This document shows, one piece after another, positions 1 through 50,830 of a stretch of 64,000 nucleotides of DNA (within the stretch, counting starts at the first letter, position 1; every line of letters starts with the position of its first letter). The stretch comes from a virus (taxonomy: Duplodnaviria; Heunggongvirae; Uroviricota; Caudoviricetes). Below the pieces are notes generated by a model. That model searched no databases, had not been told where the DNA came from, and saw only the letters and a list, made by a program, of their open reading frames with translations. The stretch is taken from IMG/VR virus record IMGVR_UViG_3300044878_000087, positions 130,432 through 194,431 of that record. One strand, given 5' to 3'. Made by a program: the position numbers and the translations under genes.

Positions 1-2
1 CG

Positions 3-755
3 GTATTTACTGCGCCAGTTAAAGCAACCGCTGTGTCATATAACGGCCCAGGTCCACAGACACTGATTGACGGCGACCTTGACCTAGGTTATTACGGTAC
101 ATTGACGCAGGCCCAGTTATACACGATCGCTGGATTGTTCAGTGCTTCTGGGTTGGGTACTGGTGGTACAATGAACCCTACGAACACTGCCTTGACCTGG
201 CATAAGTTTTCCCGTAATGGGAAAACACTGTTCGTTCCAAGTACATTCATTGCATCCACAACCTGCTGGACTAACCTGTATAACAAAGGTTTAGTTTATG
301 GCGTCGATGGTAATGGTCCACAGAACCCAGGCACTGGTGTAAATCAGAAAGTTGTTTTACAAGTGGGTAATGACAGATTCTTAATCCGGTTACCTACCAA
401 TTATGATGATCGCGCTAACCCTAACCGTACAACCCCTGCTGGCGTAACTACAGCTGATACCAGCTCTGGTCGCAAATACAGTGAAGCAGCTGACCTGCTC
501 TGGTCATTGCTTCCATATGCACCCGCATTCCAACGGTTCGCAAGAAAGTCCCCATACTACACCACTGCCTCTATGGAATGGTTATCGGCCGGTCAAGGCT
601 ATCGATTGATCGGCCAAGAGCAAAGTAGCGGGAACGTAATAATGAACACAAACATCGATTCCATCGGTGGTATGTCTGCCGGTGTATCGCTAGCAATTGG
701 TGTATCGGGTGGCGCTAATGGATGGCGTCCAATATTGGAACTCATCGACGATTAA
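3..755 (+). CDS. paralog-family protein 1 (5' partial; open to window start); GPGP..GYYG..W.KF..GK.LF.P motif shared with 770 and 1927 genes; putative virion/host-recognition protein
   Basis: ORF open upstream of the GTG listed at 33; ~120-aa core homologous to the two downstream genes. Confidence 0.6.
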   Translation, partial: VFTAPVKATAVSYNGPGPQTLIDGDLDLGYYGTLTQAQLYTIAGLFSASGLGTGGTMNPTNTALTWHKFSRNGKTLFVPSTFIASTTCWTNLYNKGLVYGVDGNGPQNPGTGVNQKVVLQVGNDRFLIRLPTNYDDRANPNRTTPAGVTTADTSSGRKYSEAADLLWSLLPYAPAFQRFARKSPYYTTASMEWLSAGQGYRLIGQEQSSGNVIMNTNIDSIGGMSAGVSLAIGVSGGANGWRPILELIDD

Positions 756-769
756 TCATGGAGCATTAA

Positions 770-1657
770 ATGACCATTCGTTTAACCTGGACGAATCCGA
801 ACACTGCGTCCGATTCAGTAACAATCTATCGCGATACCAACCCCATCAACCCTGCTAGTCTGCCTGCACCATTGGCAACAATCACTGATGGGTCAACAAC
901 GTATGACGATAGCAATAACCTAGTGCGTAATACGTTGTATTACTATGCCTTTAGTGTCAATAAAAATGGAGACGCTTCTCTTTCGGCACAAAAGGTCATT
1001 TGTAATATGCCCAACACTGGACCTGGGCCAACCTCGTTTGTCCGAGGGGATTGGCTATTGGGTTATTTTGGTGACCTAACCACAGCCGAATTATTCACTG
1101 CCACGCAATTGCAATCGTTGGTTGGATTAAACGCCGCAACTGGCTTGGACTCCTTTACTTGGAGTAAGTTTGCATACAAAGGGAAAGTACTATACTTCCC
1201 TTCGCAGCATCTGCACAACTCCGTTGGATGGAACCTGCTGTATAGCAAAGGCTTGGTATTTGGAACGACGGACACTGGCCCAACTGGTCATAGCAACACA
1301 CCAGTAAACCAACAAATAAAAGTTACTAAAGGTAGTGATGAGTTCATTGTGCGATTACCACGCACTAACTTAACACCTGGTTATGTACAGGGCACTATTG
1401 ATACAGCCAGCGAATGGTACCAATGTGTGGTGGCTCAATGGTCAGCATATAACAGCGGTCTATTGGCACTAAACCAATTAGCGCCAACATGGACTGGTTC
1501 GCCTGCACCCATGGCTGAATTTGTAGCCGGTGTCACAACCCTGGGATGTGCCTATGTCACGGGTAGCCCAGTACCGAATACAGCCACCCCAGGAACATGT
1601 GCACGCAGTTCATCGTCATATCTGTGGCGCCCTGTATTGGAATACGTTCCATCGTAA
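770..1657 (+). CDS. paralog-family protein 2; FN3-like N-terminus (W.NP....Y.V.R......YYYA.S.NKNG) followed by the GPGP core; contains an RGD tripeptide
   Basis: ATG 15 nt after the previous stop; shared core motif with 33 and 1927 genes. Confidence 0.65.
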   Translation: MTIRLTWTNPNTASDSVTIYRDTNPINPASLPAPLATITDGSTTYDDSNNLVRNTLYYYAFSVNKNGDASLSAQKVICNMPNTGPGPTSFVRGDWLLGYFGDLTTAELFTATQLQSLVGLNAATGLDSFTWSKFAYKGKVLYFPSQHLHNSVGWNLLYSKGLVFGTTDTGPTGHSNTPVNQQIKVTKGSDEFIVRLPRTNLTPGYVQGTIDTASEWYQCVVAQWSAYNSGLLALNQLAPTWTGSPAPMAEFVAGVTTLGCAYVTGSPVPNTATPGTCARSSSSYLWRPVLEYVPS

Positions 1658-1671
1658 AAGGTAATCGGTCT

Positions 1672-1866
1672 ATGAGCCTACACAAGTTGTTGGAAGCTGT
1701 AGAGCGCTTGGAGAACCTTACTCCAGAAGAGAAGCGCGCACTACACGAGCGTGCAGCCGAACGCATGCGTAAGTTTGATGAAGAATGTGCTGAACGTATT
1801 CGTAAGAGTATTCCATCACAAGAACTGTTGAACAAAGTTTGCAACTGGGGTACCCTATATGGCTGA
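1672..1866 (+). CDS. small helical hypothetical protein (64 aa, MSLHKLLEAVERL...)
   Basis: RBS AAAGGTAA upstream of the ATG at 1672; the ORF track start at 1597 probably lies too far upstream. Confidence 0.45.
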   Translation: MSLHKLLEAVERLENLTPEEKRALHERAAERMRKFDEECAERIRKSIPSQELLNKVCNWGTLYG

Positions 1867-1882
1867 GCAGCTACGGCTGCTC
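1865..1882 (+). terminator. hairpin GAGCAGC-TACG-GCTGCTC followed by the TTATGCCGCTATCCTAT box
   Basis: perfect 7-bp stem directly after the stop at 1866; same box as at 3938. Confidence 0.4.
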
Positions 1883-1926
1883 TTATGCCGCTATCCTATG
1901 TTAAAAATATATTAAAATAAAGGGAT

Positions 1927-2676
1927 ATGAGGAAGAGCATGTTTGAGGTACTATTAAGTGGTGGGGCACCCGCTACAAAAACAGTTTATCCCAATAGTGG
2001 CCCAGGCCCACAGACACTATTGTTAGGGGATGAGAATATCGGTTACTTTGGAGAGTTATCGGCCGGCGAAGTAATCACCAATGCTGACTTGAAGGCCTTC
2101 CTTAATCCATCGATGCAAAGTAGCGTTATGGTCGATAAAGGATGGTTTAAATGTTTCCACAAAGGCAAAGTAAAGTTTATCTCTAAAGGGGGTACATTTA
2201 CTAACACTGCATGGACTGCACTATATGCTTCCGGTGGCGTCTATGGTACCAATGACAATGGCTTATATCCAATCGGCACAGCTACAAACCAGTATAAGCC
2301 GTTTAACATCACTAATGGTCCTGTGACATGGAAATTGATTCCTAAGCTTATGTCAGGTGGTCAGAATGATCCTAGTAGTAGTTCCCCAGGGGATGATGGT
2401 AGCGAATATACCGATCTAATGTACCGTATGTTTACAGGCACCCATCCGAATGGAGGTGCATTCTTAAAGTATCTTAAAGCAGATGTTGCAATGAACTCGG
2501 CACATGCCTGCGTAGAATCGAAAGACACATTAACAACCAGCACCATTGTTCGTGGTTATACTGGCGTTATTAGTAACTCGGCACAGGTATTGACTAAAGG
2601 CGACAGATCCGGCTATGGGCAAATCTGTCGAATGGTTCTAGTAGTTGAGGGTGATCCAAAAGTCTTACCCGTATAA
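1927..2676 (+). CDS. paralog-family protein 3 (GPGPQTLLLGDENIGYFGEL...)
   Basis: RBS AAGGGA; homologous core to the 33 and 770 genes. Confidence 0.65.
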   Translation: MRKSMFEVLLSGGAPATKTVYPNSGPGPQTLLLGDENIGYFGELSAGEVITNADLKAFLNPSMQSSVMVDKGWFKCFHKGKVKFISKGGTFTNTAWTALYASGGVYGTNDNGLYPIGTATNQYKPFNITNGPVTWKLIPKLMSGGQNDPSSSSPGDDGSEYTDLMYRMFTGTHPNGGAFLKYLKADVAMNSAHACVESKDTLTTSTIVRGYTGVISNSAQVLTKGDRSGYGQICRMVLVVEGDPKVLPV

Positions 2677-2680
2677 GAAA

Positions 2681-2710
2681 TAAAGAAATACTGAGAGTGT
2701 AATAGTATAC
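2681..2710 (+). promoter_or_regulatory. plus-strand promoter-like motif TAAAGAAATAC-N14-TATAC
   Basis: one of five copies (2681, 4885, 6239, 6581, 7037); begins at or next to the upstream stop codon and precedes the tRNA cluster. Confidence 0.4.
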
Positions 2711-2827
2711 GAGAGACTGCCGTTAAAGTCTCCAAACGAGCGTAAGAGTAGGAATCCCCTATAGCCTACTCGACAGGGACCAGGGATATCGGTTAGCCTG
2801 GTTTAACAAAAACCCGACCAAGTTTCA

Positions 2828-2903
2828 GGGTGTGTAGTTCAATTGGCAGAGTAGCGCGCTCCAAACGCGTTGGTTCCAGGTTCGAGTCCAGCCATGCCCG
2901 CCA
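2828..2903 (+). tRNA. tRNA-Trp: tRNA-Trp (anticodon CCA), 76 nt; T-stem carries two mismatches
   Basis: acceptor GGGTGTG/CATGCCC (2 GU pairs), D arm GTTC/GAGT, anticodon arm GCGCG-CTCCAAA-CGCGT, T-loop GGTTCGAGTCC, 3' GCCA. Confidence 0.55.
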
Positions 2904-3623
2904 AACACCACAGACGTCAGTCTGCAAGTCCCCTGGCCTAACCCGCCTTGGGCACCTAAGTTAGTAGTTGAGATATCAGGAGGGTGGGTGTTGCGATTGC
3001 CTCCACTGGTCTGAATAGATCGCGTCAATCGGAATCTATAGTACTTAAAGCCGATTGAGGTAAAGTGGTAAGATCGTCATATCTCCGCTACAAACCCATT
3101 CTCCCTTGAGAGTGGTAAGACCCTCGCAATGGCGTGGGCAGGTCATACACCGATGCCTGATTAATCCTCAGACTAGGGCACCGAGCTGCATGGTGTGTGA
3201 TTATCGAACCCTAAGACGGTTGGCAAAAGATCAGAATAGCCGACTAGCAGGGAAGCTCAAAGCCCGATCCGACAAATACCCCAAAGACCTGATGATCCAG
3301 GTTACTAAGGCGTCATACCGAAGACACGTGAAGACTCGGCTGCAACGGATCAGATGTCCGTCACAGGTTGGCATGGAACAATAGTTCTGTGCGCAACCAC
3401 ATATTCTCAATTACTTGCCCTCCATCGTACTGAAGCTTTGCATGGCGAGTAAGTAGATAGACCTAACGAAACGGTTCGACCTCTAGCGGAATGCCGCGAC
3501 CAGCCCGTGCTGTACATTAGGATAAAAAGCTCGCCCAGCGGCGATCTACACCATACCCGCAATCTGCAGGAATGGATAACCAAGGCTTGAATCTTGGATG
3601 CTGGGAACGAATTTTAGAAACAC
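2904..3623 (+). ncRNA. ORF-poor ~700 bp spacer inside the tRNA cluster; candidate stable structured RNA(s), or degenerate intron/homing-endonuclease remnant
   Basis: no ORF >=60 aa except an Arg-rich 92-aa frame without an RBS; flanked by tRNAs; T4-type tRNA clusters are known to carry stable small RNAs. Confidence 0.3.
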
Positions 3624-3711
3624 GCGGGGATGGTGGAGCGGTATACGCAGCGGCCTTAAAAGCCGCCGCCCTTTACGGGCTCGCTGGGTTCGAATCCCGC
3701 TCCCCGCACCA
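3624..3711 (+). tRNA. tRNA-Leu: tRNA-Leu (anticodon TAA), class II with long variable arm
   Basis: acceptor GCGGGGA/TCCCCGC+ACCA; anticodon arm GCGGC-CTTAAAA-GCCGC; T-loop GGTTCGAATCC. Confidence 0.9.
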
Positions 3712-3717
3712 TATACA

Positions 3718-3805
3718 GGAAGCATGGCCGAGTGGCTCAAGGCAACGGTCTTGAAAACCGTCGGGTGTAATAGCCCCTAGAGTTCGAATCTCTATGCTTC
3801 CGCCA
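3718..3805 (+). tRNA. tRNA-Ser: tRNA-Ser (anticodon TGA), class II
   Basis: acceptor GGAAGCA/TGCTTCC+GCCA; anticodon arm ACGGT-CTTGAAA-ACCGT; T arm TAGAG-TTCGAAT-CTCTA. Confidence 0.9.
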
Positions 3806-3809
3806 GATC

Positions 3810-3885
3810 GCCGACATAGCTCAGATGGCAGAGCAACTGACTTGTAATCAGTAGGTCTTCGGTTCGATTCCGAATGTCGGCACCA
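3810..3885 (+). tRNA. tRNA-Thr: tRNA-Thr (anticodon TGT)
   Basis: acceptor GCCGACA/TGTCGGC+ACCA; anticodon arm ACTGA-CTTGTAA-TCAGT; T-loop GGTTCGATTCC. Confidence 0.9.
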
Positions 3886-3918
3886 GTTATTGTTATTGGC
3901 CTATAGAGCCCCTCGCTT

Positions 3919-3938
3919 GGCCTACCTTTGGGTAGGCT
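3919..3938 (+). terminator. hairpin GGCCTACC-TTTG-GGTAGGCT followed by TTTATGCCGTTATCCTATAC; likely terminator of the tRNA cluster
   Basis: GC stem followed by a T-rich tract immediately after the last tRNA. Confidence 0.5.
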
Positions 3939-3981
3939 TTATGCCGTTATCCTATACATTCTTTTAAGATGGATAACGGTA

Positions 3982-4887
3982 ATGTTTGAAGCACTATTAC
4001 TGGGTAAAGGTTCAAGTGCCCCAATTGGTGGTGCATGGTTAAAATTAGGCGGTTCATTTCCAGGCCGTTATGCTGGCGCCGGAGCAGTATCTGGCGGAAA
4101 GATATATTTATTCGGTGGATACAATGCCGGTGGCCCCACTTATTACAATGACATGCAGTGTTATGATCCTGCATTACAGACATGGTCAGCAAAAGCCACT
4201 GGACCAGCAGGGCGATACAACCACGTAATGGTAGAATGTAATGGATACCTATATCTCCATGGCGGTGTTAACGGTGGTGGCTATTTATCAGACATGTGGC
4301 GTTATGATCCTGTAGGTAATACATGGTTAGCTAGGGCTTCTACAGGTAGTGGTGGCCGTGATGGTGGTGCAATGGCGGCAGTCGGGACTAAGATCTATGC
4401 TGTTTGTGGATATGTTCCTAACGTCTATAGTACCGAAATGCGCATATATGACACGGTAGCAAACACCTGGTCATTAGGAACACCACTACCAGCAACAGGG
4501 CGTTCGAATGCCACAATGGTGGCGATTGGTACAAAGCTTTACTTGTATGCTGGTCAAGCGCCATCAATGAATGATTTGTGGTGTTTCGATACGGTGGCTG
4601 GAACATGGACACAACTGGCCGATGGTCCAAGTGCACGTACCAACCATACTGCTACGGTATTGAATGGCAAGATGTATATGCATGGTGGTTCAGGCACAGT
4701 GGAAGGTACATCTGCAAAATTCTATAGCTATGACCCTAACACAAATCTATGGACTACGCTAACGGCCAGTCCTACAGGTAGTCAACGTTCCGATGCTTGC
4801 CTAGTTGCGATGGATGGAAAGATTTATCTTACCGGTGGCTACAACCCACCAACGTACCCTACAGACATTTATCAGTTCACGCCATAA
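3982..4887 (+). CDS. Kelch-repeat beta-propeller protein (about 6 repeats: GG..G...ND...YDP..N.W)
   Basis: repeated Kelch motifs; ATG at 3982 preferred over the TTG at 3928 that falls inside the hairpin box. Confidence 0.75.
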   Translation: MFEALLLGKGSSAPIGGAWLKLGGSFPGRYAGAGAVSGGKIYLFGGYNAGGPTYYNDMQCYDPALQTWSAKATGPAGRYNHVMVECNGYLYLHGGVNGGGYLSDMWRYDPVGNTWLARASTGSGGRDGGAMAAVGTKIYAVCGYVPNVYSTEMRIYDTVANTWSLGTPLPATGRSNATMVAIGTKLYLYAGQAPSMNDLWCFDTVAGTWTQLADGPSARTNHTATVLNGKMYMHGGSGTVEGTSAKFYSYDPNTNLWTTLTASPTGSQRSDACLVAMDGKIYLTGGYNPPTYPTDIYQFTP

Positions 4888-4914
4888 AGAAATACCCTCA
4901 ACAAAAACTATATA
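4885..4914 (+). promoter_or_regulatory. plus-strand promoter-like motif TAAAGAAATAC-N13-TATAT (contains the Kelch stop codon)
   Basis: family member; about 50 nt upstream of the 4965 ATG. Confidence 0.4.
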
Positions 4915-4964
4915 GGGGACCTCCGGGTTTCCTTTATAGCCCAATACCCCAATAGGACTTTCCA

Positions 4965-5354
4965 ATGTATACAAGATTCATGTACCCCCCACGTAGGAAA
5001 ACGCCAACTGACCGTATTCGTGAAGGCGAAGCTCACCGTGCACGTCTAGCTATACGAGAAGCCATTGAAGCCGAAAATACTCGGTTCAAAGGACCAGAAC
5101 CAATTGGTGAGGCAGTAGTAGCTTACGGTGCCGGAATGCATACTGTGTTTCAGCGTATGCGTGGTGATGCCGTGTACAGTAGTGACCAGACGCGTGCGTT
5201 ACTTGAAGATGCGATGTGTAACATACGCAAAGAGTTCACGGAACGACAACGTGAATATCATCGGTATGAACCAACTGTAGTCATCATGACAGACGGCAAA
5301 AGAGATTATTTCTCTCTTCGTTTGGATGGATGGGAAATAATGAGGATCAGCTAA
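4965..5354 (+). CDS. hypothetical protein (129 aa)
   Basis: ORF; its stop TAA overlaps the next start (TAATG). Confidence 0.55.
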   Translation: MYTRFMYPPRRKTPTDRIREGEAHRARLAIREAIEAENTRFKGPEPIGEAVVAYGAGMHTVFQRMRGDAVYSSDQTRALLEDAMCNIRKEFTERQREYHRYEPTVVIMTDGKRDYFSLRLDGWEIMRIS

Positions 5355-6241
5355 TGGAAACACTACCATTGATATACAAAGAACACCTATCTGAACTGGA
5401 TCAATCCGTTAACTTCGAACATCGCATGACCGATCACAAAGGAATGTTAGAAGCACGTTACGTACGACGTAGCGATGATTACTTCATTGTTTATTTGTCG
5501 TCTCAAACAGGATGTAAACAAGCCTGTCGTATGTGTCATCTAACAGCTACGGGTCAAACAGATCTTCGCGACACTACTATCGAAGAATACTGGGATCAAG
5601 CTGATCGTGTACTGAGGTACTATGCTAACAAAACTCCTGCCCGGATGGTGCACTTTAACTTCATGGCTCGTGGTGAACCATTGGCTAATAAGATCTTCCT
5701 AGAGAATGCCGACTTGATTCTGCGTGGTCTAGCTAATCGGGCAAAAGCATTAGGGTTGGAATATAAATTCCTCATATCCACAATCTTCCCAAAAGAGTTT
5801 GATGTCTATGAACTCACCGATGTTTTTAAAGACCCTGCTTTAAGACCGGAACTTTATTACTCGTTGTATTCAACGGATCGTGACTTCCGTAGAAAGTGGC
5901 TAGGTAAAGCAATTGAACCTGGTATTGCACTTACCCTGCTCGGACGTTGGAATCGATCTACTGGTAAAGTACCTAAGATCCATTATGCATTCATTGATAA
6001 TGAAAACGATTCACTCGGTGATGTAAAGCGTTGCATTGATCTGATCCAGCATTATAACGTTCCCGTCAATTGGAACATTGTTCGATATAATCCACCTAAC
6101 GATAAATCGAAAGAGACCATCGAAGGACAAATCAATTACCTGGCTGGTTACATTCGTAGTCGTCTACCGAAGGCACGAGTGAAAGTAATCCCACGGGTCG
6201 GTACAGATGTAAAAGCCAGCTGTGGTACGTTCTTGAAATAA
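5354..6241 (+). CDS. radical SAM enzyme, RlmN/Cfr-like RNA methyltransferase core (SSQTGCKQACRMC...; C-terminal ASCG), lacking the usual N-terminal domain
   Basis: CxxxCxxC preceded by the RlmN/Cfr SSQ.GC hallmark and a C-terminal Cys in an (A/S)CG context; RBS GAGGA; alternative start at 5330. Confidence 0.7.
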   Translation: METLPLIYKEHLSELDQSVNFEHRMTDHKGMLEARYVRRSDDYFIVYLSSQTGCKQACRMCHLTATGQTDLRDTTIEEYWDQADRVLRYYANKTPARMVHFNFMARGEPLANKIFLENADLILRGLANRAKALGLEYKFLISTIFPKEFDVYELTDVFKDPALRPELYYSLYSTDRDFRRKWLGKAIEPGIALTLLGRWNRSTGKVPKIHYAFIDNENDSLGDVKRCIDLIQHYNVPVNWNIVRYNPPNDKSKETIEGQINYLAGYIRSRLPKARVKVIPRVGTDVKASCGTFLK

Positions 6242-6268
6242 AGAAATACTACAGTCGGTATCATATAC
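6239..6268 (+). promoter_or_regulatory. plus-strand promoter-like motif TAAAGAAATAC-N14-TATAC (overlaps the radical-SAM stop)
   Basis: family member. Confidence 0.35.
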
Positions 6269-6277
6269 GACCAGAGC

Positions 6278-6400
6278 ATGTGTTGTAAGCGGTTTGCATG
6301 CGCATGGTGGAAGAGACACATACAAACGACGGCTGTCAACTGTCGAACCGAATGCCTTATTTACGCATGTGACAATGTGTCTATTAAGGAAGTCGTGTAG
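6278..6400 (+). CDS. possible 40-aa Cys-rich peptide (MCCKRFACAWWKRHIQTTAVNCRTECLIYACDNVSIKEVV), immediately downstream of the radical SAM gene
   Basis: ATG about 10 nt after the TATAC element (would be near-leaderless); weak RBS; 6 Cys in 40 aa. Confidence 0.25.
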   Translation: MCCKRFACAWWKRHIQTTAVNCRTECLIYACDNVSIKEVV

Positions 6401-6551
6401 CCAAGCACTACGGAGATGACCTATCCTGCTGATTGCAGGGGCTTTGAAGTAGTACCACTGGAACGCGGCGCCGGATAACACCGTGATCCCTGATTACTTG
6501 GGGAAAAGCTGGCCGGCCATGGAGATATCTGGTTTAACTTACGCAACGAGT

Positions 6552-6567
6552 CTCACCTGCGGGTGGG
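6552..6567 (+). terminator. hairpin CTCACC-TGCG-GGTGGG followed by ACTTTATGCAGCGTAAAG
   Basis: hairpin plus TTTATGC box family. Confidence 0.45.
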
Positions 6568-6580
6568 ACTTTATGCAGCG

Positions 6581-6610
6581 TAAAGAAATACTCGCGGTAA
6601 TACAATATAC
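6581..6610 (+). promoter_or_regulatory. plus-strand promoter-like motif TAAAGAAATAC-N14-TATAC
   Basis: family member; upstream of the 6677 gene. Confidence 0.4.
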
Positions 6611-6676
6611 AGGACTATACGTTCAAGCACTTAGAAGATGAAGAGCATCTTTATCAAAGCTTGAAAGGTATAAAAC

Positions 6677-6988
6677 ATGTTTTACAATGATTGGTCCGAA
6701 AGTGGTATTGAAGGTTTGATGTGTGACTTCCGCATTAGCGAAAGCGAAATGGATGGGGTAACAATCATTTACGCTACTTATACTTACGAAGATTACAGTG
6801 GGTCCGCCTACGTACTATTCGTCAAGCATGGGAAGTATTATGAAGTCCATGGTTCTCACTGCTCCTGTATGGGACTGGAAGAACAATGGGACCCAGAGGA
6901 ATGTACCTACGTGGAATTGGCAGAGATGCTGACAAGGCGAGGTGATACTGAAGTCGCTCAGGCTCTCAATACTTACTTGGATAAATGA
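6677..6988 (+). CDS. hypothetical protein (103 aa) with a possible metal-binding HGSHCSC motif
   Basis: RBS AAAGG. Confidence 0.55.
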   Translation: MFYNDWSESGIEGLMCDFRISESEMDGVTIIYATYTYEDYSGSAYVLFVKHGKYYEVHGSHCSCMGLEEQWDPEECTYVELAEMLTRRGDTEVAQALNTYLDK

Positions 6989-7007
6989 ACTGTAGTTCTG
7001 TAGGTAG

Positions 7008-7027
7008 GAGTTCCCTTCGGGGAGCTC
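7008..7027 (+). terminator. hairpin GAGTTCCC-TTCG-GGGAGCTC (UUCG loop) followed by TTATGCCGTTAAAAG
   Basis: family member. Confidence 0.5.
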
Positions 7028-7036
7028 TTATGCCGT

Positions 7037-7066
7037 TAAAAGAATACTGGCGGTGTCAGTGTATGT
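7037..7066 (+). promoter_or_regulatory. plus-strand promoter-like motif TTAAAAGAATAC-N14-TATGT (variant), upstream of rtcB
   Basis: extended similarity to the 6581 copy over about 40 nt. Confidence 0.35.
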
Positions 7067-7100
7067 AACACTCCCTCTTTCCACTCGCGTGAGGCTTTAT

Positions 7101-8366
7101 ATGAAACAACAAACTCGTACATTCGAAATTCTCGGTGGTGAACCAGAACCAGGTTCTAAACCAATCAAAGGTTGGACCGTTGGTGTTCCCGTAGAACCCG
7201 ATGCAATCAAGCAACTCAAGAACTTGGCAGCTCTGCCATTCATCCAATCCCACCTGGCGGTAATGCCAGACGTGCATGTGGGTAAAGGTGCGACTATCGG
7301 TTCTGTGATCGCTACCAAAGGCGCAATCATTCCAGCAGCCGTAGGCGTTGACATCGGTTGTGGTATGGCGGCTTATCGCCTGAACGCTTCTGCTAAAGAT
7401 CTGCCTGATTCGTTGGGTCACGTTCGTGCAGCTATCGAAGCGGTAATCCCTCATGGCCGTACAGATAACGGCGGGAAGAACGACCGTGGTGCCTTCGGTA
7501 CTGTAAAAGTATTCAACCACCCAGTCAAGGCTGTCCGTGAAGAAGCTGAAAAGCTCAAGCGTGAACTGGAAGTCATCGTTCAGAAATATCCGAAGCTCTC
7601 TAAGGCTGCTGAGCGTGCATGGATGCATATCGGTACTCTCGGCACAGGTAATCACTTCGTAGAGCTGTGCTTGGACGAAGCGGACCGTGTATGGGTAATG
7701 CTGCACTCTGGTTCCCGTGGGATCGGTAACGCAATCGGTACACTGTTCATCAACCTGGCCAAAGAAGAGATGCGCCGCTTCTTTATCAACCTGCCAGATC
7801 AAGAACTCGGCTACTTGCCGTACGGTTCCAAGTACTACGCCGACTACCTGCATGCAGTACAGTGGGCACAACGTTTCGCTGCTCTGAATCGTTCTGTGAT
7901 GATGCATGCTACTTTGGATGCAATTCATCGTACCCTCGGTCTGCCAATCGATTCCGATATGGAAGCGATCAACTGCCACCACAACTACGTATCGGAAGAG
8001 CGTCACTTCGGTGATAACGTTCTGGTAACACGTAAAGGTGCAGTAGCGGCCTATGAAGGTAAGCTCGGGATCATTCCAGGTTCGATGGGCGCTAAGTCTT
8101 TCATCGTTCGTGGTAAAGGCCATCGTGATTCGTTCTGTTCATGTTCGCATGGTGCAGGTCGTGTAATGTCACGTAAGGCAGCAGAGCGTGTGTTCACGCT
8201 AGAGGACCACATTCGTGATACGGCTGGAGTTGAGTGCCGTAAAGACGAAGGCGTCCTAGATGAGACACCAAAGGCTTACAAGAATATCGATGATGTGATG
8301 GCAGCCCAAGCTGAACTGGTTGACATCGTCCATACCCTGAAACAAGTTCTTTGCGTTAAGGGTTGA
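7101..8366 (+). CDS. rtcB: RtcB 3'-phosphate/5'-OH RNA ligase
   Basis: hallmark GTGNHF, CHHNY and SCSHGAGR motifs; RBS GTGAGG before the ATG at 7101 (track start at 7053 is probably too early). Confidence 0.9.
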   Translation: MKQQTRTFEILGGEPEPGSKPIKGWTVGVPVEPDAIKQLKNLAALPFIQSHLAVMPDVHVGKGATIGSVIATKGAIIPAAVGVDIGCGMAAYRLNASAKDLPDSLGHVRAAIEAVIPHGRTDNGGKNDRGAFGTVKVFNHPVKAVREEAEKLKRELEVIVQKYPKLSKAAERAWMHIGTLGTGNHFVELCLDEADRVWVMLHSGSRGIGNAIGTLFINLAKEEMRRFFINLPDQELGYLPYGSKYYADYLHAVQWAQRFAALNRSVMMHATLDAIHRTLGLPIDSDMEAINCHHNYVSEERHFGDNVLVTRKGAVAAYEGKLGIIPGSMGAKSFIVRGKGHRDSFCSCSHGAGRVMSRKAAERVFTLEDHIRDTAGVECRKDEGVLDETPKAYKNIDDVMAAQAELVDIVHTLKQVLCVKG

Positions 8367-8367
8367 T

Positions 8368-9318
8368 ATGGACTACATCGGTTTCTGTGATGCAGTCGAT
8401 AAGTCTGCACTGAAACACGTGAGTGATATATCGAAACGACATTATCTGACAGCAGCCCAAGCCCCGGTGTACATCATCGGGCGTATCAATGAGGAACTGT
8501 TAGCGCAGTTCCCTGGGGCTAAGATTGCTACGGATTATTCCACGTATTATGATCCTCACGAATGGGGCGGCTGGTATTACTACGTCACCTCTACAATCAT
8601 TCAAAAAGAAATCACCTTCCAGTACTGTGCAGAGATTCATAATGCAATCGGTAAGAAAGAGTTTACCCTCGTAAATAAGGAAAGACCACCAGTGACTAAA
8701 TTTCAAGAACGTGTACAGAAATACTCTGCGGAAGTATTTGCTTCTCTGGTAGCAGATTCGACTCTGTCCTCCAGTCAGTTCATTACAGCATTCGAACGTG
8801 ACCTGATCGCCCGGTTGGAAGAGACTTACGACCGTAAAGGTTTCGAAGTATCACTGACCATCAGTCACGGAGCCTGTATCAGTTACAGTGCTGTCGTAGA
8901 AGACACTGTCGATGGGACAGAAGTAAAGTTGGATATCGGACGTGAAGATTACGTCACTGAAGATGAAACTGTTAAAGGGCTAAAGTGGTCAAAAGACTTC
9001 AGTCTGAAAACTGTCTATGCGAACGATCCAGAGTTCTTTACTAAGCTGTCGAAAGTTCGTGCAACCATCGAGTTCACTCGCATTGCAACCAATGCCTTGT
9101 CTGATGCTTTCCTGAGCCATGAAGACAGGCTCGATACACTGGATGGCGCTTTGGCTGTTCATGGACACGTCATGAGTGTTCTGCAAGAAGCTGCACCTCC
9201 ATGCAAGTTCACCATCAATGTAACTATCGAAAACCGTACTGCAACTTTGAACGTGGAAGAAGCCGTCACCAAAGTTAAGTTCCGTCTTCGTGCAACTCGT
9301 CAACCGGATGCCGTATAA
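8368..9318 (+). CDS. hypothetical protein (316 aa), translationally coupled to rtcB
   Basis: ATG 1 nt after the rtcB stop. Confidence 0.6.
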   Translation: MDYIGFCDAVDKSALKHVSDISKRHYLTAAQAPVYIIGRINEELLAQFPGAKIATDYSTYYDPHEWGGWYYYVTSTIIQKEITFQYCAEIHNAIGKKEFTLVNKERPPVTKFQERVQKYSAEVFASLVADSTLSSSQFITAFERDLIARLEETYDRKGFEVSLTISHGACISYSAVVEDTVDGTEVKLDIGREDYVTEDETVKGLKWSKDFSLKTVYANDPEFFTKLSKVRATIEFTRIATNALSDAFLSHEDRLDTLDGALAVHGHVMSVLQEAAPPCKFTINVTIENRTATLNVEEAVTKVKFRLRATRQPDAV

Positions 9319-9729
9319 ATGAAGAAGATCGTAATTGCTTTAAGCCTCGCTCTGGCGATGGCTGTTCCAGCTCATGCTGCTTCTGTGGTGCGCCAACACT
9401 CAGCGTGGGTCGAGTCTGCTAACTGCGTGTTGGTAGATCGTAAAGAATCCGTATCGGGTGGCCTGGTAGGCGGTGCGCTCGGTGGTGTTGGTGGTGCTCT
9501 GGTAGGTAGCCTGTTCGGTAAGAAAGGGCGCACAATCGGTGCCATCGGCGGTGCATTGGGTGGAGCCGCTTACGGTTCCTCCGGTGACAAAGTCTACAAC
9601 TGTTCAGTACTCGCCAGTCTGAATGATGGCTCCAAGCATCTGATCACCAAGATCACGAATACTCAAATCACAACCCAAGACAAGATCGGTGTAGTCGAAT
9701 TGTCTGATGGTACATTCCAAGCCTTGTAA
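9319..9729 (+). CDS. secreted glycine-zipper protein (signal peptide ...AHA/AS; GxxxG-rich segment)
   Basis: N-terminal signal peptide; Gly-zipper; ATG abuts the previous stop. Confidence 0.65.
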   Translation: MKKIVIALSLALAMAVPAHAASVVRQHSAWVESANCVLVDRKESVSGGLVGGALGGVGGALVGSLFGKKGRTIGAIGGALGGAAYGSSGDKVYNCSVLASLNDGSKHLITKITNTQITTQDKIGVVELSDGTFQAL

Positions 9730-9738
9730 GGAAGCATA

Positions 9739-11625
9739 ATGAAAACTGCATCTGAAATTCTCTCAGCTATCACGTTCGCCATTCAAGAAGTCGCTAGCCC
9801 TCTGGCGAAAGTTCCACCAGACTTCGGCTTGCGTGTAGCGCGTCACCTGCAAGGCACACCGTTCAACTACTCAACCAGTACTTCGACTCAAGGTCCTGAT
9901 GAGTTCATCATCTTCCTGGATGACTTCAAACAGAAAGACTGGATGGTAACGATCAAAATCCAAGGTGACTTCCAGTATACACTGGATGGCCCACATGAAG
10001 TAGGTCGCGATATCCCGGACACTGAAGAACTAAAAGCTCCAGAGGGACCTATCGTTCCTGGTGAACCAGAGATCACTGTAGCTCAAGCCATGGCCCGTAT
10101 CCGTGCTGCAATCGCAAGTGACGAAGGTTATGCATGGGGTTGGCAGTCTAATCTGGCGATGCCAATCTTGGATGACCTGGGTGTTAATCACAAACTGGCT
10201 AATCGTGCTGGTGCCCGCCTGCTGCAACACTTGTTCGGTTACGATATTACCAAGCAAAAAGAATACACTGATATCCAAAACCGTGTTGAAACCACCACGG
10301 TAGAAGATGATGTCGCTGACAGTATGCTCCACATCACTGTGACAGGTTACAAAGCCAATTCTGGCGCAGAAGAACTGTCACGTCGTTTGGCCGAGTATCT
10401 GAAGATGGGTGGTTATGAGGCACTGATCAATATCGCAGATACCACACTGGCCGGGGAAGAACGCTCAGTGGCACTGCCGCCAGAAGGTGTACGTATTCAT
10501 GTAACTGGCGTTGAATCTCGCTGGCATTCTGATCGTGTTGCTGAACCGGAAGATGTAGATATCCCATGTGGTGAAGGTGATGACTTCGGTGGCGACGATC
10601 CTTTAGATAGCGCTGATTCAGATGGTCCATGGGAAGTAGAAAGTGGTGCATTCGAATCTCAACCTAAACTTACACTACATGTAACCATCCCGAAGTATGA
10701 GTGTAACCCAACTCAAATCATCGATGCGTTGCGTGATCAGTATCCTGATGCTGACATCAGTGCCAAGATCAAACTTGATAACTTCGGTTGCGACTCGATC
10801 AAGGCTAACGCTGCCCTCAAGAAAGCTGTACGGTTCACTATCCATCCAGATGATCCAAATCCAGCAGCTACTATTGGGTACCTGCAGAACGAGTTCCGTA
10901 AAGCCTACGGCCTGGAACCAGTTATTCCAACCGTAGCTGAGCACCGCATTGGTTATGTAGAACCAATGGTGACGGATAGTGGTGAAGATACCGTCGAGTC
11001 TACGATTCAACCTACACTGACTATGGTCAAGGAAAAGATGATGCTATCTAATCCTGAGGATCGTGCCAATGCTTATCTCTTCGAACGTCGTGAAGGGGAT
11101 ACCTATCGGAACGTGTTGTTCCATGTTGACGTAGATGCAGAAGGTTTCGATGTTGAGCAGATCACTGGTGAAGGCTGGGGTATCGTAGAAGCATCACCTG
11201 GAGTATTCAATACCCTCCTGGAAAAAGTATCTCCGGAAGTTGTTCGATACTCGTTGGACTTGTACGAGAACAATGCTCGTTGGTTGAACCGTTTCGGCGA
11301 CGGTAAAGAGATCGCTACTCGTACACATGAAGGTCCATTCACACTGTACACTATCGGACAAGGAGCAATCCCAAAAGCGATCTATGGTGAAGTGGAAGAA
11401 TGCTGGACTGCTTTCCAAAACATCGATCGTCTACAGGAGCTCTCTGAGGAACTACGCGATCCATCTATTGTTATCGGGGCAGAAGACTACCTCAAGATAA
11501 CTCATGGTGGTTGCATGACAGTACGCGAACACCCGCGGTTGGAAGAACTGTTCTTGAAGTATATTCACTACAAGGCAACGTTCAACCCACTGATCGATCG
11601 TTGGATTAAATCTTTCGGTCTGTAA
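9739..11625 (+). CDS. large acidic hypothetical protein (628 aa)
   Basis: RBS AAGGAAG; long ORF. Confidence 0.6.
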   Translation: MKTASEILSAITFAIQEVASPLAKVPPDFGLRVARHLQGTPFNYSTSTSTQGPDEFIIFLDDFKQKDWMVTIKIQGDFQYTLDGPHEVGRDIPDTEELKAPEGPIVPGEPEITVAQAMARIRAAIASDEGYAWGWQSNLAMPILDDLGVNHKLANRAGARLLQHLFGYDITKQKEYTDIQNRVETTTVEDDVADSMLHITVTGYKANSGAEELSRRLAEYLKMGGYEALINIADTTLAGEERSVALPPEGVRIHVTGVESRWHSDRVAEPEDVDIPCGEGDDFGGDDPLDSADSDGPWEVESGAFESQPKLTLHVTIPKYECNPTQIIDALRDQYPDADISAKIKLDNFGCDSIKANAALKKAVRFTIHPDDPNPAATIGYLQNEFRKAYGLEPVIPTVAEHRIGYVEPMVTDSGEDTVESTIQPTLTMVKEKMMLSNPEDRANAYLFERREGDTYRNVLFHVDVDAEGFDVEQITGEGWGIVEASPGVFNTLLEKVSPEVVRYSLDLYENNARWLNRFGDGKEIATRTHEGPFTLYTIGQGAIPKAIYGEVEECWTAFQNIDRLQELSEELRDPSIVIGAEDYLKITHGGCMTVREHPRLEELFLKYIHYKATFNPLIDRWIKSFGL

Positions 11626-44211: not shown

Positions 44212-45567
44212 TTATTCATCAGCCTTCTTTAGCAAATAGCTATTGCTGATGCACTTGAACGACAGGATCTTGTTACGAGCTTTGAACACGAAGCCTTCGC
44301 GGTAGGTACCTTTCTTCTGGTTGAAAGCACGTTGACCTTCAGCCATAGCCAGGATATCTTTCACGGTAGCATCTTTCGGGATCACGAACGACTCGTGTGC
44401 AACAGGAACGTAGGTCAGACCCAGTTCAGCTACGATGACACGAGCTTCATCCGGCAGCAGTTCTTCGTTACCATTGCGGAACACCGAGAACACGTAGAAC
44501 TCATGTTTCTCAACGCCTTCGAAGTTCGACTGGATGTCAGGACCGATCAGCTCACCTTGAACGGTGATGTACTGACCAGTACGAGCTTGGTATGCTTTCA
44601 GCTTCTGGACGACTTCATGTTCTTTCACGTAGCGGGTGAAGTTGTTCTCAGTAACCAAAGCCCCCTTACGCCATTCAGGCCAGTGGATGCGTTTGACTTT
44701 GAACATCTTACGGTTACGTGCCAGGAAAGAACCAGTCCAGTAACGAATCTGATCTAGCAGCGACCACGGTGCAGCATCCCCCAGCGACAGCTCGAAGTTA
44801 CGCGAGCAGACACCGGTACGAACACCACTATCGTCGAGGCAGAACACAGTCATCGAAGAACCATCCAGCTTATAGGTAACTTCGAATTCAGTTCCGTCTT
44901 CTTGAGCCAGAGTGAACGCAACAGTTTTGTTCTGTACGCGATCTTGGTCGGACTTGATCAGTTGACCAGGCCATGGCATCAGCGAACCATCCAGACCTTT
45001 CAGGATGCGACGAACCAACCGACCATACCAATCCGAAGCTGCTACCGCGCCATTACCGTCACGTTCAGTTTGTGGCTTTGGCTCGTACTTCAGGATACCG
45101 AGCTCCAGAGTCAGGTTGGTATCTACTGGCAGATCCTTGTACTTGTCAGGGACCGGAACCAACAGACCTTGCGACAGTTCTTTACGCAGCTTGATGGTAG
45201 ACAGGCGATGGTAGTTCTCACCGTTTACACGACGGTTCGACGAACGACGTTCTTCCAGGAAACCGAAGAGTTCCACGTTCGACAGTGGAAGCAGAGAGTC
45301 GATCTCACAATAAACTGCGCGTTCGCCTTTCTTGTACTCACCGATCTTGACACACAGTTGCCAGCCACCTACAACTGCCAGTTCCAGTGCATCGGCATTA
45401 GGGTGCTTAACCACATCATTGATTTCCACGATACGGGCAAGCTTACGATCTTTTTCTACAACACCGAAACCATCACGGATCGGCTTTTCTTCAACTACAG
45501 GTGCTACAACTGCTTCGGTCATTGCAAGTTCCTCGTGTGATATTGAAACAGATTCCTCTGTAATCAA
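44212..45567 (-). CDS. ATP-dependent RNA ligase fused to an N-terminal tRNA-binding OB-fold (Myf/EMAP-like, KHPNADALELAVVGGWQ) domain
   Basis: nucleotidyltransferase motif I YKLDGSS, motif IV REGFVFK, motif V LSFKCISNSYLLKK; N-terminal KHPNAD tRNA-binding signature. Confidence 0.75.
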   Translation of the reverse strand: MITEESVSISHEELAMTEAVVAPVVEEKPIRDGFGVVEKDRKLARIVEINDVVKHPNADALELAVVGGWQLCVKIGEYKKGERAVYCEIDSLLPLSNVELFGFLEERRSSNRRVNGENYHRLSTIKLRKELSQGLLVPVPDKYKDLPVDTNLTLELGILKYEPKPQTERDGNGAVAASDWYGRLVRRILKGLDGSLMPWPGQLIKSDQDRVQNKTVAFTLAQEDGTEFEVTYKLDGSSMTVFCLDDSGVRTGVCSRNFELSLGDAAPWSLLDQIRYWTGSFLARNRKMFKVKRIHWPEWRKGALVTENNFTRYVKEHEVVQKLKAYQARTGQYITVQGELIGPDIQSNFEGVEKHEFYVFSVFRNGNEELLPDEARVIVAELGLTYVPVAHESFVIPKDATVKDILAMAEGQRAFNQKKGTYREGFVFKARNKILSFKCISNSYLLKKADE

Positions 45568-45586
45568 TAATCAACACGAGTACTTT

Positions 45587-45970
45587 TTAGCAGATCACTG
45601 TAATAGTAGTGACCTTGTTGTTGCTAACGCCAGACTCGACACGGAATGTCCATGCGTCTGTGCCGACACGCCAATGCGGATAACGCATTACCGTTACAGC
45701 CATGTCTGGTGTATATTGAACCTGCAACGTTTTGATGACTTGATCTACGCTGTATGGCTTATCTACCAAAGTGTCAAGCGTAGCGATGGTAACGCGTTTG
45801 TAAGACCATGGGCGAGTAAACAATGTGAGTATCCAGAACACCCACACGATACATGCAATCAGACTATCGATGATGCTGTTCTGAATATACCAGTACCATG
45901 CCTCATCTTTAGGCTTACGACGTTTCAGTTCACCTGTGGCCAAAGAAAACAAATACATCAACTTTTCCAT
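45587..45970 (-). CDS. membrane protein (127 aa)
   Basis: ORF with a TM segment. Confidence 0.45.
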   Translation of the reverse strand: MEKLMYLFSLATGELKRRKPKDEAWYWYIQNSIIDSLIACIVWVFWILTLFTRPWSYKRVTIATLDTLVDKPYSVDQVIKTLQVQYTPDMAVTVMRYPHWRVGTDAWTFRVESGVSNNKVTTITVIC

Positions 45971-46197
45971 TACACGATCTCCTCAAGGTATTGCAAATCA
46001 GCTTTAGTAAAGAATGCCGTGTCACTAACAGGTTTGCCTTCATGCATGATGAACCACCATTTCTCACCATACGCTGGCATGAGTTCAATGTCAACGCCAG
46101 TGGTCAGAATGCCGGGATAATTATTACAGAAGCATTCTCCACCGAAAACATTGTTCTCGAACTCACTTCTTTCTTTTACCTTTACTCGCTTCTTCAT
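45970..46197 (-). CDS. small hypothetical protein (75 aa)
   Basis: ORF, coupled. Confidence 0.4.
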   Translation of the reverse strand: MKKRVKVKERSEFENNVFGGECFCNNYPGILTTGVDIELMPAYGEKWWFIMHEGKPVSDTAFFTKADLQYLEEIV

Positions 46198-46588
46198 GTG
46201 CGGTATCCTGTTGGTTTTCGGTCAGGATGAAATCAAGTTGCATGATTTCGGTTACGTTACCATTAGAGTCACGCATCATACGTGCACCCAAAGTAACTTT
46301 GCCACGATGGCGTTCCAGTGCATCACGTCGACCACCATGGAAGTGGGCAACGAAAGAATAGGAGTTTTCTCCAGCGTCGTATACAGGCTCTTTGAGCACA
46401 GCGCATACGTTGGATGGGTTGATCTGCTGCAAGCGCCACAGGCGACGCTTAGGTTCCTTGTATGGAGTCAGATCAGGAATACCATACTCGGTCTGCATAC
46501 CGATGACTTTGTGTTTGGCGATATACGCTTCGAGAGCTTCTTTATAGCCTTCTGGTTTTGTATTGAGGTCAATCTTTGTTCGAAACAC
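46163..46588 (-). CDS. hypothetical protein (141 aa)
   Basis: ORF. Confidence 0.5.
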   Translation of the reverse strand: MFRTKIDLNTKPEGYKEALEAYIAKHKVIGMQTEYGIPDLTPYKEPKRRLWRLQQINPSNVCAVLKEPVYDAGENSYSFVAHFHGGRRDALERHRGKVTLGARMMRDSNGNVTEIMQLDFILTENQQDTAHEEASKGKRKK

Positions 46589-46601
46589 TTGTTCTTCCTT
46601 T

Positions 46602-46814
46602 TTACATCAAGTTGTGGTAGTATTGTTTTTCTGCTCCGCCAACCAGGCAGACCATCAGCATTAATAACAGAAAGGCAATGGCTACACCGAAACACCAGTC
46701 TACTCGATCCCTGGCATCGATGCGATCCGTATAGCATCCCCAGAATACAAACAGGGCCATTAACATACCCAAGCCCAGAGTTACCAGTGCTGAAATGAGT
46801 GTAATCATAATCAT
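46602..46814 (-). CDS. small membrane protein (70 aa)
   Basis: hydrophobic ORF. Confidence 0.4.
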   Translation of the reverse strand: MIMITLISALVTLGLGMLMALFVFWGCYTDRIDARDRVDWCFGVAIAFLLLMLMVCLVGGAEKQYYHNLM

Positions 46815-46824
46815 CCAGAATAAA

Positions 46825-46843
46825 GCCTCCCCATAAGGGAGGC
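46825..46843 (-). terminator. hairpin GCCTCCC-UUAUG-GGGAGGC followed by TTTATTCTGG
   Basis: after the stop of the thymidylate synthase gene. Confidence 0.45.
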
Positions 46844-46852
46844 AGTATGTCG

Positions 46853-48313: not shown

Positions 48314-48336
48314 ATCTAACTCCTATTGGTTATACA

Positions 48337-48921: not shown

Positions 48922-48955
48922 TTAATGCTCCTAATGACAAAAAAGAAAATAGGAT

Positions 48956-48973
48956 GGGGACCCGAAGGTCCCC
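48956..48973 (-). terminator. hairpin GGGGACC-UUCG-GGTCCCC followed by ATCCTATTTTCTTTTTTG
   Basis: GC stem plus a U-run after the stop of the NAMPT-like gene. Confidence 0.5.
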
Positions 48974-48979
48974 GTCCGA

Positions 48980-50812: not shown

Positions 50813-50830
50813 GTTGAATCAATTCCTTGT

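Follow-up and report, generated by a model that had tools for sequence, protein, structure and literature searches.

The 64,000-nt stretch analyzed here (IMG/VR record IMGVR_UViG_3300044878_000087, positions 130,432 to 194,431; hereafter the window) is part of a phage genome of about 310 kb and carries a gene for an RtcB RNA ligase, directly followed by a gene for an orphan protein of 316 amino acids (aa). The present analysis deals with these two genes, with a second, ATP-dependent RNA ligase encoded in the same window, and with the tRNA cluster that lies upstream of RtcB. The source of the window is a phiKZ-like jumbo Pseudomonas phage of the nucleus-forming type. Around the locus, nucleotide similarity among phage records was found only to the Pseudomonas phages D6 (307 kb) and RVTF4 (302 kb), and Psa21 was detected as a further relative at the protein level. 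D6 has been grouped with Psa21 and PhiPA3 (D6 paper). The genes from position 1 to 11625 are directed rightward and those from 11684 to about 63860 almost all leftward. The rightward block starts with three paralogous open reading frames (ORFs), tRNA-Trp, a gap of 720 nt, tRNA-Leu, tRNA-Ser, tRNA-Thr, and a Kelch-repeat gene, and continues with a 129-aa ORF, an RlmN/Cfr-like gene, a 103-aa ORF, RtcB, the 316-aa ORF, a glycine-zipper gene, and a 628-aa ORF (Table 1). The Pfam scan covered about 50 of the approximately 113 candidate ORFs of the window.

RtcB and its surroundings

A reading of the window made from the letters alone (the sequence-only reading) had reported a full-length RtcB with the motifs GNHF, CHHNY, and SCSHGAGR, and this description was confirmed. 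The protein matches PF01139 over the whole profile (positions 1-426 of 426, E=5e-127, 425 bits at a cutoff of 27) as well as phrog_1075 (E=7e-145), and its sequence contains GTGNHF, CHHNY, and SCSHGAGR. In a phmmer alignment to RtcB of Pyrococcus horikoshii (PDB 1uc2), the metal ligands D95, C98, H203, H234, and H329 are conserved and likewise the guanylylated His404, whereby the aligned strings are GVDIGCG, GNHF, HSGSRG, CHHN, and SHGAGR. Judged by these residues, the phage gene encodes a catalytically intact and probably functional RtcB. Translation likely starts at ATG 7101, which is preceded by GAGG, and not at GTG 7053, because the orthologues of D6 and RVTF4 are 420-421 aa long and align from residue 1-3. 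The protein is 82-88% identical to the orthologues of D6, Psa21, and RVTF4, the gene is 80% identical to that of D6 at the nucleotide level, and RtcB homologues occur in 515 phage records. Compared to the bacterial and archaeal enzymes (Escherichia coli; P. horikoshii, PDB 1uc2/4dwq), the phage protein has the same full-length domain, metal ligands, and His nucleophile, and its size corresponds to the short bacterial RtcB form. In contrast to these enzymes, no RtcA, RtcR, or archease partner was seen with the phage RtcB, and its gene is embedded in a block of tRNA and RNA methyltransferase genes with an orphan gene next to it.

Some close RtcB orthologues are considerably longer (739-775 aa; L006 5778-7997, L117 747-3074 on the minus strand, and PS119XW). 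Their additional length stems from an intein-like stretch of some 320-350 aa inserted behind residue 87, where the Cys of the DIGCG metal-binding motif is located. In NCBIfam, the window RtcB scores best with the "intein-containing RtcB" family, and the window copy itself lacks the insertion. Between the 103-aa ORF and RtcB there is an 8-bp hairpin with a UUCG tetraloop (GAGTTCCC-TTCG-GGGAGCTC, 7006-7030, plus strand), which lacks a T-tract and was therefore not called by the terminator scan.

The proximity of RtcB to four phage tRNA genes, put at about 3 kb in the sequence-only reading, was reproduced by two methods: The tRNAs were called by ARAGORN and obtained Rfam tRNA scores of 43-74 bits, and the cluster lies about 3.2 kb upstream of RtcB. 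The linkage of RtcB to the tRNA cluster is preserved across the clade, with the order tRNA, RlmN-like gene, RtcB, and 316-aa gene being conserved in D6, RVTF4, Psa21, L006, and L117. The RlmN/Cfr-like gene obtained NCBIfam scores below the cutoffs for both RlmN (E=1e-13) and Cfr (E=8e-13). It is located downstream of the tRNA/RNA cluster and on the same strand in every related locus visible there, including that of phage Phabio. The C-terminal SCG of its product resembles the methyl-carrier Cys motif of RlmN.

Table 1. Positions of the genes and RNA features discussed in the text; window coordinates unless a locus is named
Feature	Position	Strand	Assignment based on
tRNA cluster: Trp(CCA) 2828-2903; Leu(UAA) 3624-3711; Ser(UGA) 3718-3805; Thr(UGU) 3810-3885	2828..3885	+	
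Conserved structured RNA candidate, 720 nt, between tRNA-Trp and tRNA-Leu	2904..3623	+	
Homologues of the structured RNA candidate	L001 2549-3254; L002 2557-3408; L003 1742-2572; L006 902-1734; L028 9068-9824; L117 5493-6291 (-); L115 10736-11190 (3' half)		
RlmN/Cfr-like radical-SAM RNA methyltransferase	5330..6241	+	phrog_27142 (E=3e-138), CX3CX2C motif
RtcB RNA ligase, 421 aa	7101..8366	+	Pfam PF01139, phrog_1075, catalytic residues compared with PDB 1uc2
316-aa acidic orphan (isoelectric point 5.4), three predicted tandem alpha2-beta3 modules	8368..9318	+	
136-aa glycine-zipper protein, signal-peptide-like N-terminus (read from sequence)	9319..9729	+	Pfam glycine-zipper families, phrog_15869
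628-aa acidic orphan, last gene of the rightward block	9739..11625	+	Homologues by sequence
Rnl5-family RNA ligase, N-terminal OB and nucleotidyltransferase domains, 436 aa	44212..45522	-	Pfam, phrog_968, PDB 5cot, NCBIfam RNA_lig_DRB0094
NAMPT/NAPRTase-like	48980-50812	-	Pfam and NCBIfam
Ribose-phosphate-pyrophosphokinase (Prs)-like	50831-51775	-	Pfam and NCBIfam
BCS1-like AAA ATPase	52123-53490	-	
SspB-like ClpXP adaptor	54203-54892	-	
GIY-YIG/I-TevI-type homing endonuclease	54930-55640	-	

The 316-aa protein and the genes behind it

The ORF for the 316-aa protein starts 1 nt past the RtcB stop codon (GGT TGA T ATG), the following gene begins directly behind the stop codon of the 316-aa ORF, and neither a terminator nor a promoter was found between RtcB and the 316-aa gene on the plus strand. 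The two genes had been called translationally coupled. The 1-nt spacing agrees with this, but the coupling is deduced from the spacing, and the four genes from 7101 to 11625 are all equally tightly packed. The protein had further been proposed as a possible cofactor or guide of RtcB, the role played by archease, a small acidic partner of RtcB, and a profile or structure search had been suggested as a check. In these searches, no match was obtained in Pfam, PHROG, or NCBIfam, no informative fold match was found, and there was no archease match by sequence or by fold. A word-indexed search yielded 2 proteins and a profile search run exhaustively against 1.84 billion representative proteins yielded 8, one of which was judged to be a repeat-protein false positive. 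With tblastn, the protein was found in 4 phage records, namely D6, Psa21 (two records), and RVTF4.

AlphaFold2 modeling on the basis of an 8-sequence alignment (predicted local distance difference test score (pLDDT) 78, predicted template modeling score 0.36) gave three tandem helix-helix-strand-strand-strand modules connected by low-confidence linkers. It replaced a first model from 2 sequences (pLDDT 60). Only the predicted structure reveals the modules, as no internal repeats were found at the sequence level. The family is uniformly acidic, with isoelectric points of 4.7-5.4, and F112, L150, F159, E178, D179, L249, and E252 are invariant. It falls into size classes of 198 and 210 aa, in which the first module is absent, 316-327 aa, and 423 aa (Psa21), which has an extra N-terminal module. 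No homology was found by hhalign (probability <=1.3%) between the 316-aa protein and any of the following: the 329-aa gene product encoded two ORFs downstream of RtcB in Erwinia phage RAY, the 628-aa neighbor, the S80-like inserted gene described below, and the Phabio virion proteins.

In order to assess the tie between the 316-aa protein and RtcB, eight loci with visible context were compared: the window, D6, Psa21, L006, L117, RVTF4, L007, and near-identical Psa21-like contigs. A member of the 316-aa family lies downstream of RtcB in all eight, within 1-4 nt of the RtcB stop codon in six of them, whereby all eight loci represent one syntenic clade. In the remaining two (RVTF4 and L007), an S80-like gene sits between RtcB and the 316-aa gene. 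These inserted genes (L002 10290-10799 and L007 409-1134) encode a short paralogue matching Peptidase_S80, the phiKZ prohead protease family (E=1e-7), and the two copies share 38% identity. RtcB orthologues with 66-77% identity in phages RP12, BRkr/PA1C, and RAY are followed by unrelated genes and have no neighbor of the 316-aa type. Outside the one syntenic clade no co-occurrence with RtcB was detected (4 phage records in tblastn versus 515 for RtcB). The two proteins also differ strongly in their rate of change, since RtcB is 78-96% identical across the clade and the 316-aa protein only 21-37% in the same genomes, its closest relative anywhere being 59% identical. In L007, the C-terminal part of RtcB shares 96% identity with the window protein, whereas the 316-aa homologue is 24% identical and one module short. 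Such a pattern would be unusual for a conserved enzyme and its obligate cofactor, and fits an accessory, arms-race, or structural protein better. Phage Phabio shares the tRNA/RlmN-like synteny, but RtcB, the 316-aa gene, and the 628-aa gene are all absent at that place, which is consistent with an accessory cassette.

The comparison of these loci characterizes the 316-aa protein as a clade-restricted, rapidly evolving acidic protein and not as a general RtcB cofactor. A cofactor role is unproven because of the divergence relative to RtcB, the inserted gene at two loci, and the absence from other RtcB-bearing jumbo phages. The protein could nevertheless be an RtcB accessory specific to this clade, such as an archease-like activator, a substrate adaptor, or an inhibitor shield, which is co-made with RtcB via the 1-nt junction. 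The constant position behind RtcB would fit this explanation, as would the presence and absence of the gene, which is the same as that of RtcB when the site is compared with Phabio, the invariant acidic positions E178, D179, and E252, and the acidic character that the protein shares with archease. However, a gene of this kind is missing beside RtcB in RP12, BRkr/PA1C, and RAY, tblastn detected no copy in other phage records, the protein has diverged far more than RtcB, its architecture varies from 198 to 423 aa, and an S80-like gene stands between both in RVTF4 and L007. In addition, short RtcB enzymes of the bacterial type, for example that of E. coli, work without archease. We therefore regard a clade-specific accessory as unlikely. 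The 316-aa orphan would matter only if it were an RtcB binder.

The properties of the neighboring genes bring up a different explanation, according to which the genes behind RtcB (the S80-like, 316-aa, glycine-zipper, and 628-aa genes) encode virion or head-internal proteins, or other fast-evolving proteins in contact with the host, that merely share a transcription unit with RtcB. The 136-aa glycine-zipper protein matches Rick_17kDa_Anti with 24.3 bits (cutoff 24.2) and other glycine-zipper families below their cutoffs, and it is present in D6, RVTF4, and L007 and was not seen in Psa21. The 628-aa protein has no family match in Pfam, PHROG, or NCBIfam, and its homologues, which are 27-45% identical, were found only in D6, Psa21, RVTF4, L006, and L007. 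The RVTF4 homologue is annotated as "virion structural protein". Together with the Peptidase_S80 match of the inserted RVTF4 gene, two "virion structural proteins" of Phabio at the same position, and the acidic, orphan, and fast-evolving nature of all genes behind RtcB, this would point toward the virion. The best single-module fold matches of the 316-aa protein also include baseplate proteins of the gp25/TssE type. On the other side, neither the Phabio virion proteins nor any known virion protein showed detectable homology to these genes, the RVTF4 annotations are unverified, and virion mass-spectrometry data for the clade were not found. This explanation of the genes behind RtcB appears doubtful to us.

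The Rnl5-family ligase and the RNA repair hypothesis

The sequence-only reading had named a second ATP-dependent RNA ligase of the KxDG class. This assignment was confirmed with the motif I lysine conserved within KLDG, but the gene lies on the minus strand. Within the ORF 44212-45567, translation probably starts at ATG 45522, since the D6 homologue can be aligned to the resulting protein from its residue 13 onward. Pfam assigned PF21189 (PHA02142 OB-fold, E=2e-23) to residues 43-139 and PF09414 (RNA_ligase) to residues 227-437 of 451, and no C-terminal appendage follows the nucleotidyltransferase domain. The alignment to the Naegleria gruberi ligase NgrRnl (PDB 5cot, E=2e-40) reaches the last residues of both proteins. 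The equivalents of R4, D53, K121, R149, K170, E227, E312, and K326 of NgrRnl are all conserved, and the aligned strings are RKLARI, EIDS, LKYEP, QDRVQN, KLDGSS, QGELIG, REGFVFK, and SFKCISN. NCBIfam placed the protein in the family of the Deinococcus DRB0094 ligase. By these criteria, the second ligase is an Rnl5-family enzyme with its catalytic residues intact. It resembles NgrRnl and DraRnl in the arrangement of an N-terminal OB and a C-terminal nucleotidyltransferase domain and in the eight residues mutated for alanine scanning of the NgrRnl active site, but is about 100 aa longer, as it is extended at the N-terminus and carries about 60 inserted aa. The OB fold had been interpreted as a tRNA-binding domain of the EMAP/Myf type. 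No match to tRNA_bind (PF01588) was obtained with Pfam at E<=0.01, and the domain corresponds to the Rnl5 adenylylation module instead, which in NgrRnl contacts the ATP gamma-phosphate and promotes lysine adenylylation. According to the literature, Rnl5 enzymes act on duplexes in which the strand with the 3'-OH end is RNA and seal 3'-OH/5'-PO4 nicks there. Bacteriophage members of the family have been described before, and its physiological substrates are unknown family-wide. Homologues were present in 332 phage records, of which 219 belong to Pseudomonas phages.

The window encodes two mechanistically distinct ligases, as claimed before. By family, RtcB would join 3'-phosphate or 2',3'-cyclic phosphate to 5'-OH ends, and the Rnl5 enzyme 3'-OH to 5'-phosphate ends. 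That both form one system was not borne out. The two genes are 35 kb apart on opposite strands. Phabio has no RtcB at either of the sites inspected and carries Rnl5 with neither RtcB nor the NAD+ gene pair described below beside it, and no end-healing enzyme was found among the approximately 50 ORFs scanned. RtcB could seal nuclease products alone, whereas Rnl5 could not do so without healing enzymes encoded elsewhere.

The Rnl5 gene is situated close to a Prs-like and a NAMPT-like gene, which are adjacent to each other and together have the gene content of NARP1 (Adps and Namat), making the pair a candidate for this pathway. NARP1 has been described in the literature as a phage pathway that reconstitutes NAD+ and counteracts defenses based on NAD+ depletion. 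In RP12, a Ralstonia phage, and BRkr, a Pseudomonas phage, the genes for RtcB, the Prs-like protein, the NAMPT-like protein (pair at L008 7269-9988 and L009 7272-9942), 1-2 small ORFs, and the Rnl5 ligase form a cluster in this order, which ties RtcB to counter-defense genes. The BRkr Prs-like gene is 41% identical to that of the window. The Prs-like, NAMPT-like, and Rnl5 genes of the window have remained close together (44212-51775, minus strand), with a thymidylate synthase gene and small ORFs inserted, and RtcB is separated from them. The association in RP12 and BRkr supports RtcB and Rnl5 as counter-defense genes and also shows that both are not one unit in the window genome. From this gene context, Rnl5 is seen as a separate, more widely conserved gene that is linked to the NAD+-salvage pair.

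Based on these data, we favor the following account. By the established mechanism of its family, RtcB would form His-GMP and pass GMP to an RNA 3'-phosphate, which is then attacked by the 5'-OH of the other end. It would seal breaks with 2',3'-cyclic phosphate or 3'-phosphate and 5'-OH ends in a GTP- and Mn-dependent manner. Acting in the cytoplasm, it would reseal tRNAs, and possibly rRNA or mRNA, that are cut during infection by metal-independent host ribonucleases. Its gene stands last in a rightward series of RNA-related genes, after the tRNAs, a structured RNA candidate, and the RlmN-like methyltransferase. The 316-aa gene would have arrived or stayed with RtcB in one cassette, in the order RtcB, 316-aa gene, sometimes the glycine-zipper gene, and then an orphan of 520-630 aa. 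We assign a probability of roughly 0.55 to this account as a whole, with RtcB as an accessory counter-defense repair enzyme of the cytoplasm, the 316-aa protein as a member of the cassette and not a general cofactor, and Rnl5 as a separate gene. The identities of the genes, their catalytic residues, synteny, and distribution were observed, whereas the substrates of RtcB and Rnl5, the counter-defense role, and any link between RtcB and the 316-aa protein are inferred.

The localization of a close homologue is in line with this account. The RtcB of phage RAY, which is 66.7% identical to that of the window, shows a diffuse cytoplasmic distribution outside the phage nucleus, and its authors considered a possible use against host defense. 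The cytoplasmic location of this orthologue is consistent with an action on RNAs of translation. The general idea is an accepted, already published hypothesis: RtcB, ATP-dependent ligases, tRNAs, and end-healing enzymes of jumbo phages have been explained as a means to repair RNA when the host attacks translation (Iyer et al., 2021; PMC7824862). The window resembles the gene sets of that survey in combining RtcB, an ATP-dependent RNA ligase, and phage tRNAs. It differs in that such systems were found to be less common in the nucleus-forming group, in that the main ATP-dependent ligase families were Rnl1 and Rnl2 and not Rnl5, and in that none of the usual companions (polynucleotide kinase, phosphoesterases, and RlaP) was detected in the scanned ORFs of the window. 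An analogy may further be drawn to phage T4, where Pnkp and Rnl1 repair tRNA-Lys cleaved by PrrC and a phage enzyme thus reseals a tRNA cut by a host nuclease. In T4, however, ends are healed and sealed by a kinase-phosphatase and an ATP-dependent ligase, whereas RtcB would seal directly. Hence, of the sequence-only proposal of tRNA repair as a counter-defense, the intact ligases, the linkage of RtcB to tRNAs across the clade, and the agreement with the published interpretation stand, while the joint action of the two ligases does not.

Several observations weigh against the favored account. No experimentally tested phage RtcB was found in the literature searched, and no host nuclease has been identified. 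Among the scanned ORFs of the window there was no Pfam match to end-healing enzymes (polynucleotide kinase-phosphatase, 2H, HD), RlaP, or archease. The position of the 316-aa gene after RtcB in all eight visible loci could signal a real functional link, and archease, the known activator of RtcB, is acidic as well. Finally, the argument for a cassette refers to a single syntenic phage without it, Phabio. The RtcB gene by itself is one more example of a well-populated class of phage genes. Hundreds of phages carry RtcB, and in the literature searched there was no paper on what it repairs or which defense it overcomes. The clade described here could make this question testable, as D6, Psa21, and RVTF4 are cultured and Phabio apparently offers a natural comparator that lacks RtcB at the locus.

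A structured RNA candidate and further genes

The gap between tRNA-Trp and tRNA-Leu holds a candidate for a new large structured phage RNA. The region shows no ORF that is conserved in frame or strand among the relatives, and a protein-coding interpretation was rejected for this reason. At the nucleotide level it is conserved at no fewer than eight phage loci (at least 8), including Psa21, D6, RVTF4, L006, L117, an IMG/VR contig of 305 kb, and Phabio (3' half). The identity to Psa21 is 84% over 238 nt, which is higher than the 80% nucleotide identity of RtcB to D6. The element is 706-852 nt long and fills the space from tRNA-Trp or tRNA-Ser(GCU) to tRNA-Leu(UAA), with the exception of Psa21, in which the RNA is separated from tRNA-Ser by an ORF. 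None of the records has an annotation for the element.

A consensus fold of 7 sequences contains 89 pairs, 37 of them with compensatory changes. For 86 pairs, 90.4% of the cells are paired, compared to 29-44% with the partners slid, and 36 pairs show double changes, compared to 15+/-2.7 after shuffling (0 of 500 shuffles reach 36) and 8-14 after sliding, whereby the structure was derived from the same alignment on which it was tested. The window copy folds with z=-5.05. Searching Rfam with the window copy gave no match other than tRNA at the gathering threshold or at E<=1, and with the L006 copy only a snoRNA match at chance level was obtained at E<=10. Group I intron and RNase P were rejected, with no convincing match by eye and no match to the Rfam models, which include GOLLD, ROOL, and tmRNA. 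A motif scan of viral contigs returned 104 matches, mostly due to chance, of which nhmmer retained only true homologues. A motif scan of metagenomes yielded only two loci, so that the structured RNA is rare. In the literature searched, no RNA has been described at the tRNA-cluster locus. The candidate resembles GOLLD and ROOL in being a large (700-850 nt) structured phage RNA directly beside tRNA genes, but differs from them by the lack of an Rfam match and by its host range, which is that of Pseudomonas jumbo phages. This by-product of the analysis may matter more than the RtcB finding, as it matches no described RNA family.

The location of the candidate also allows for the explanation that RtcB serves the RNA biogenesis of the phage itself, for example by joining or circularizing an RNA of about 720 nt from the tRNA cluster. 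In this case it would make sense that the structured RNA, the tRNAs, the RlmN-like gene, and RtcB form one conserved same-strand block, and RtcB enzymes of other systems are known to ligate and circularize processed RNAs. However, Phabio has the 3' half of the RNA, the tRNAs, and the RlmN-like gene, but no RtcB at the site, all four tRNAs were called as intact and unsplit, and no family of self-cleaving ribozymes or introns was detected with Rfam. We consider such a function highly improbable. Two bolder variants, taken together, also appear quite unlikely: Either RtcB and the 316-aa protein would constitute a clade-specific repair unit with a non-archease activator or adaptor, or the whole same-strand block would be one RNA module in which RtcB acts on or with the new RNA.

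Further observations concern genes in the surroundings. The three tandem paralogous ORFs at the start of the window (240, 295, and 249 aa; 33-2676, plus strand) share a GPGP...LGYFG motif, and the second of them has a relative in Phabio that is annotated as "virion structural protein" (E=5e-10). Within the tRNA region, a six-bladed Kelch-repeat protein is encoded at 3928-4887 (plus strand), whose D6 counterpart is annotated as "galactose oxidase" and lies on the opposite strand. The thymidylate synthase gene between the NAD+-salvage pair and the Rnl5 ligase (46853-48295, minus strand) encodes 480 aa, and Pfam matches it in two separate stretches, suggesting that it contains a large insertion, either an intein or an inserted domain.

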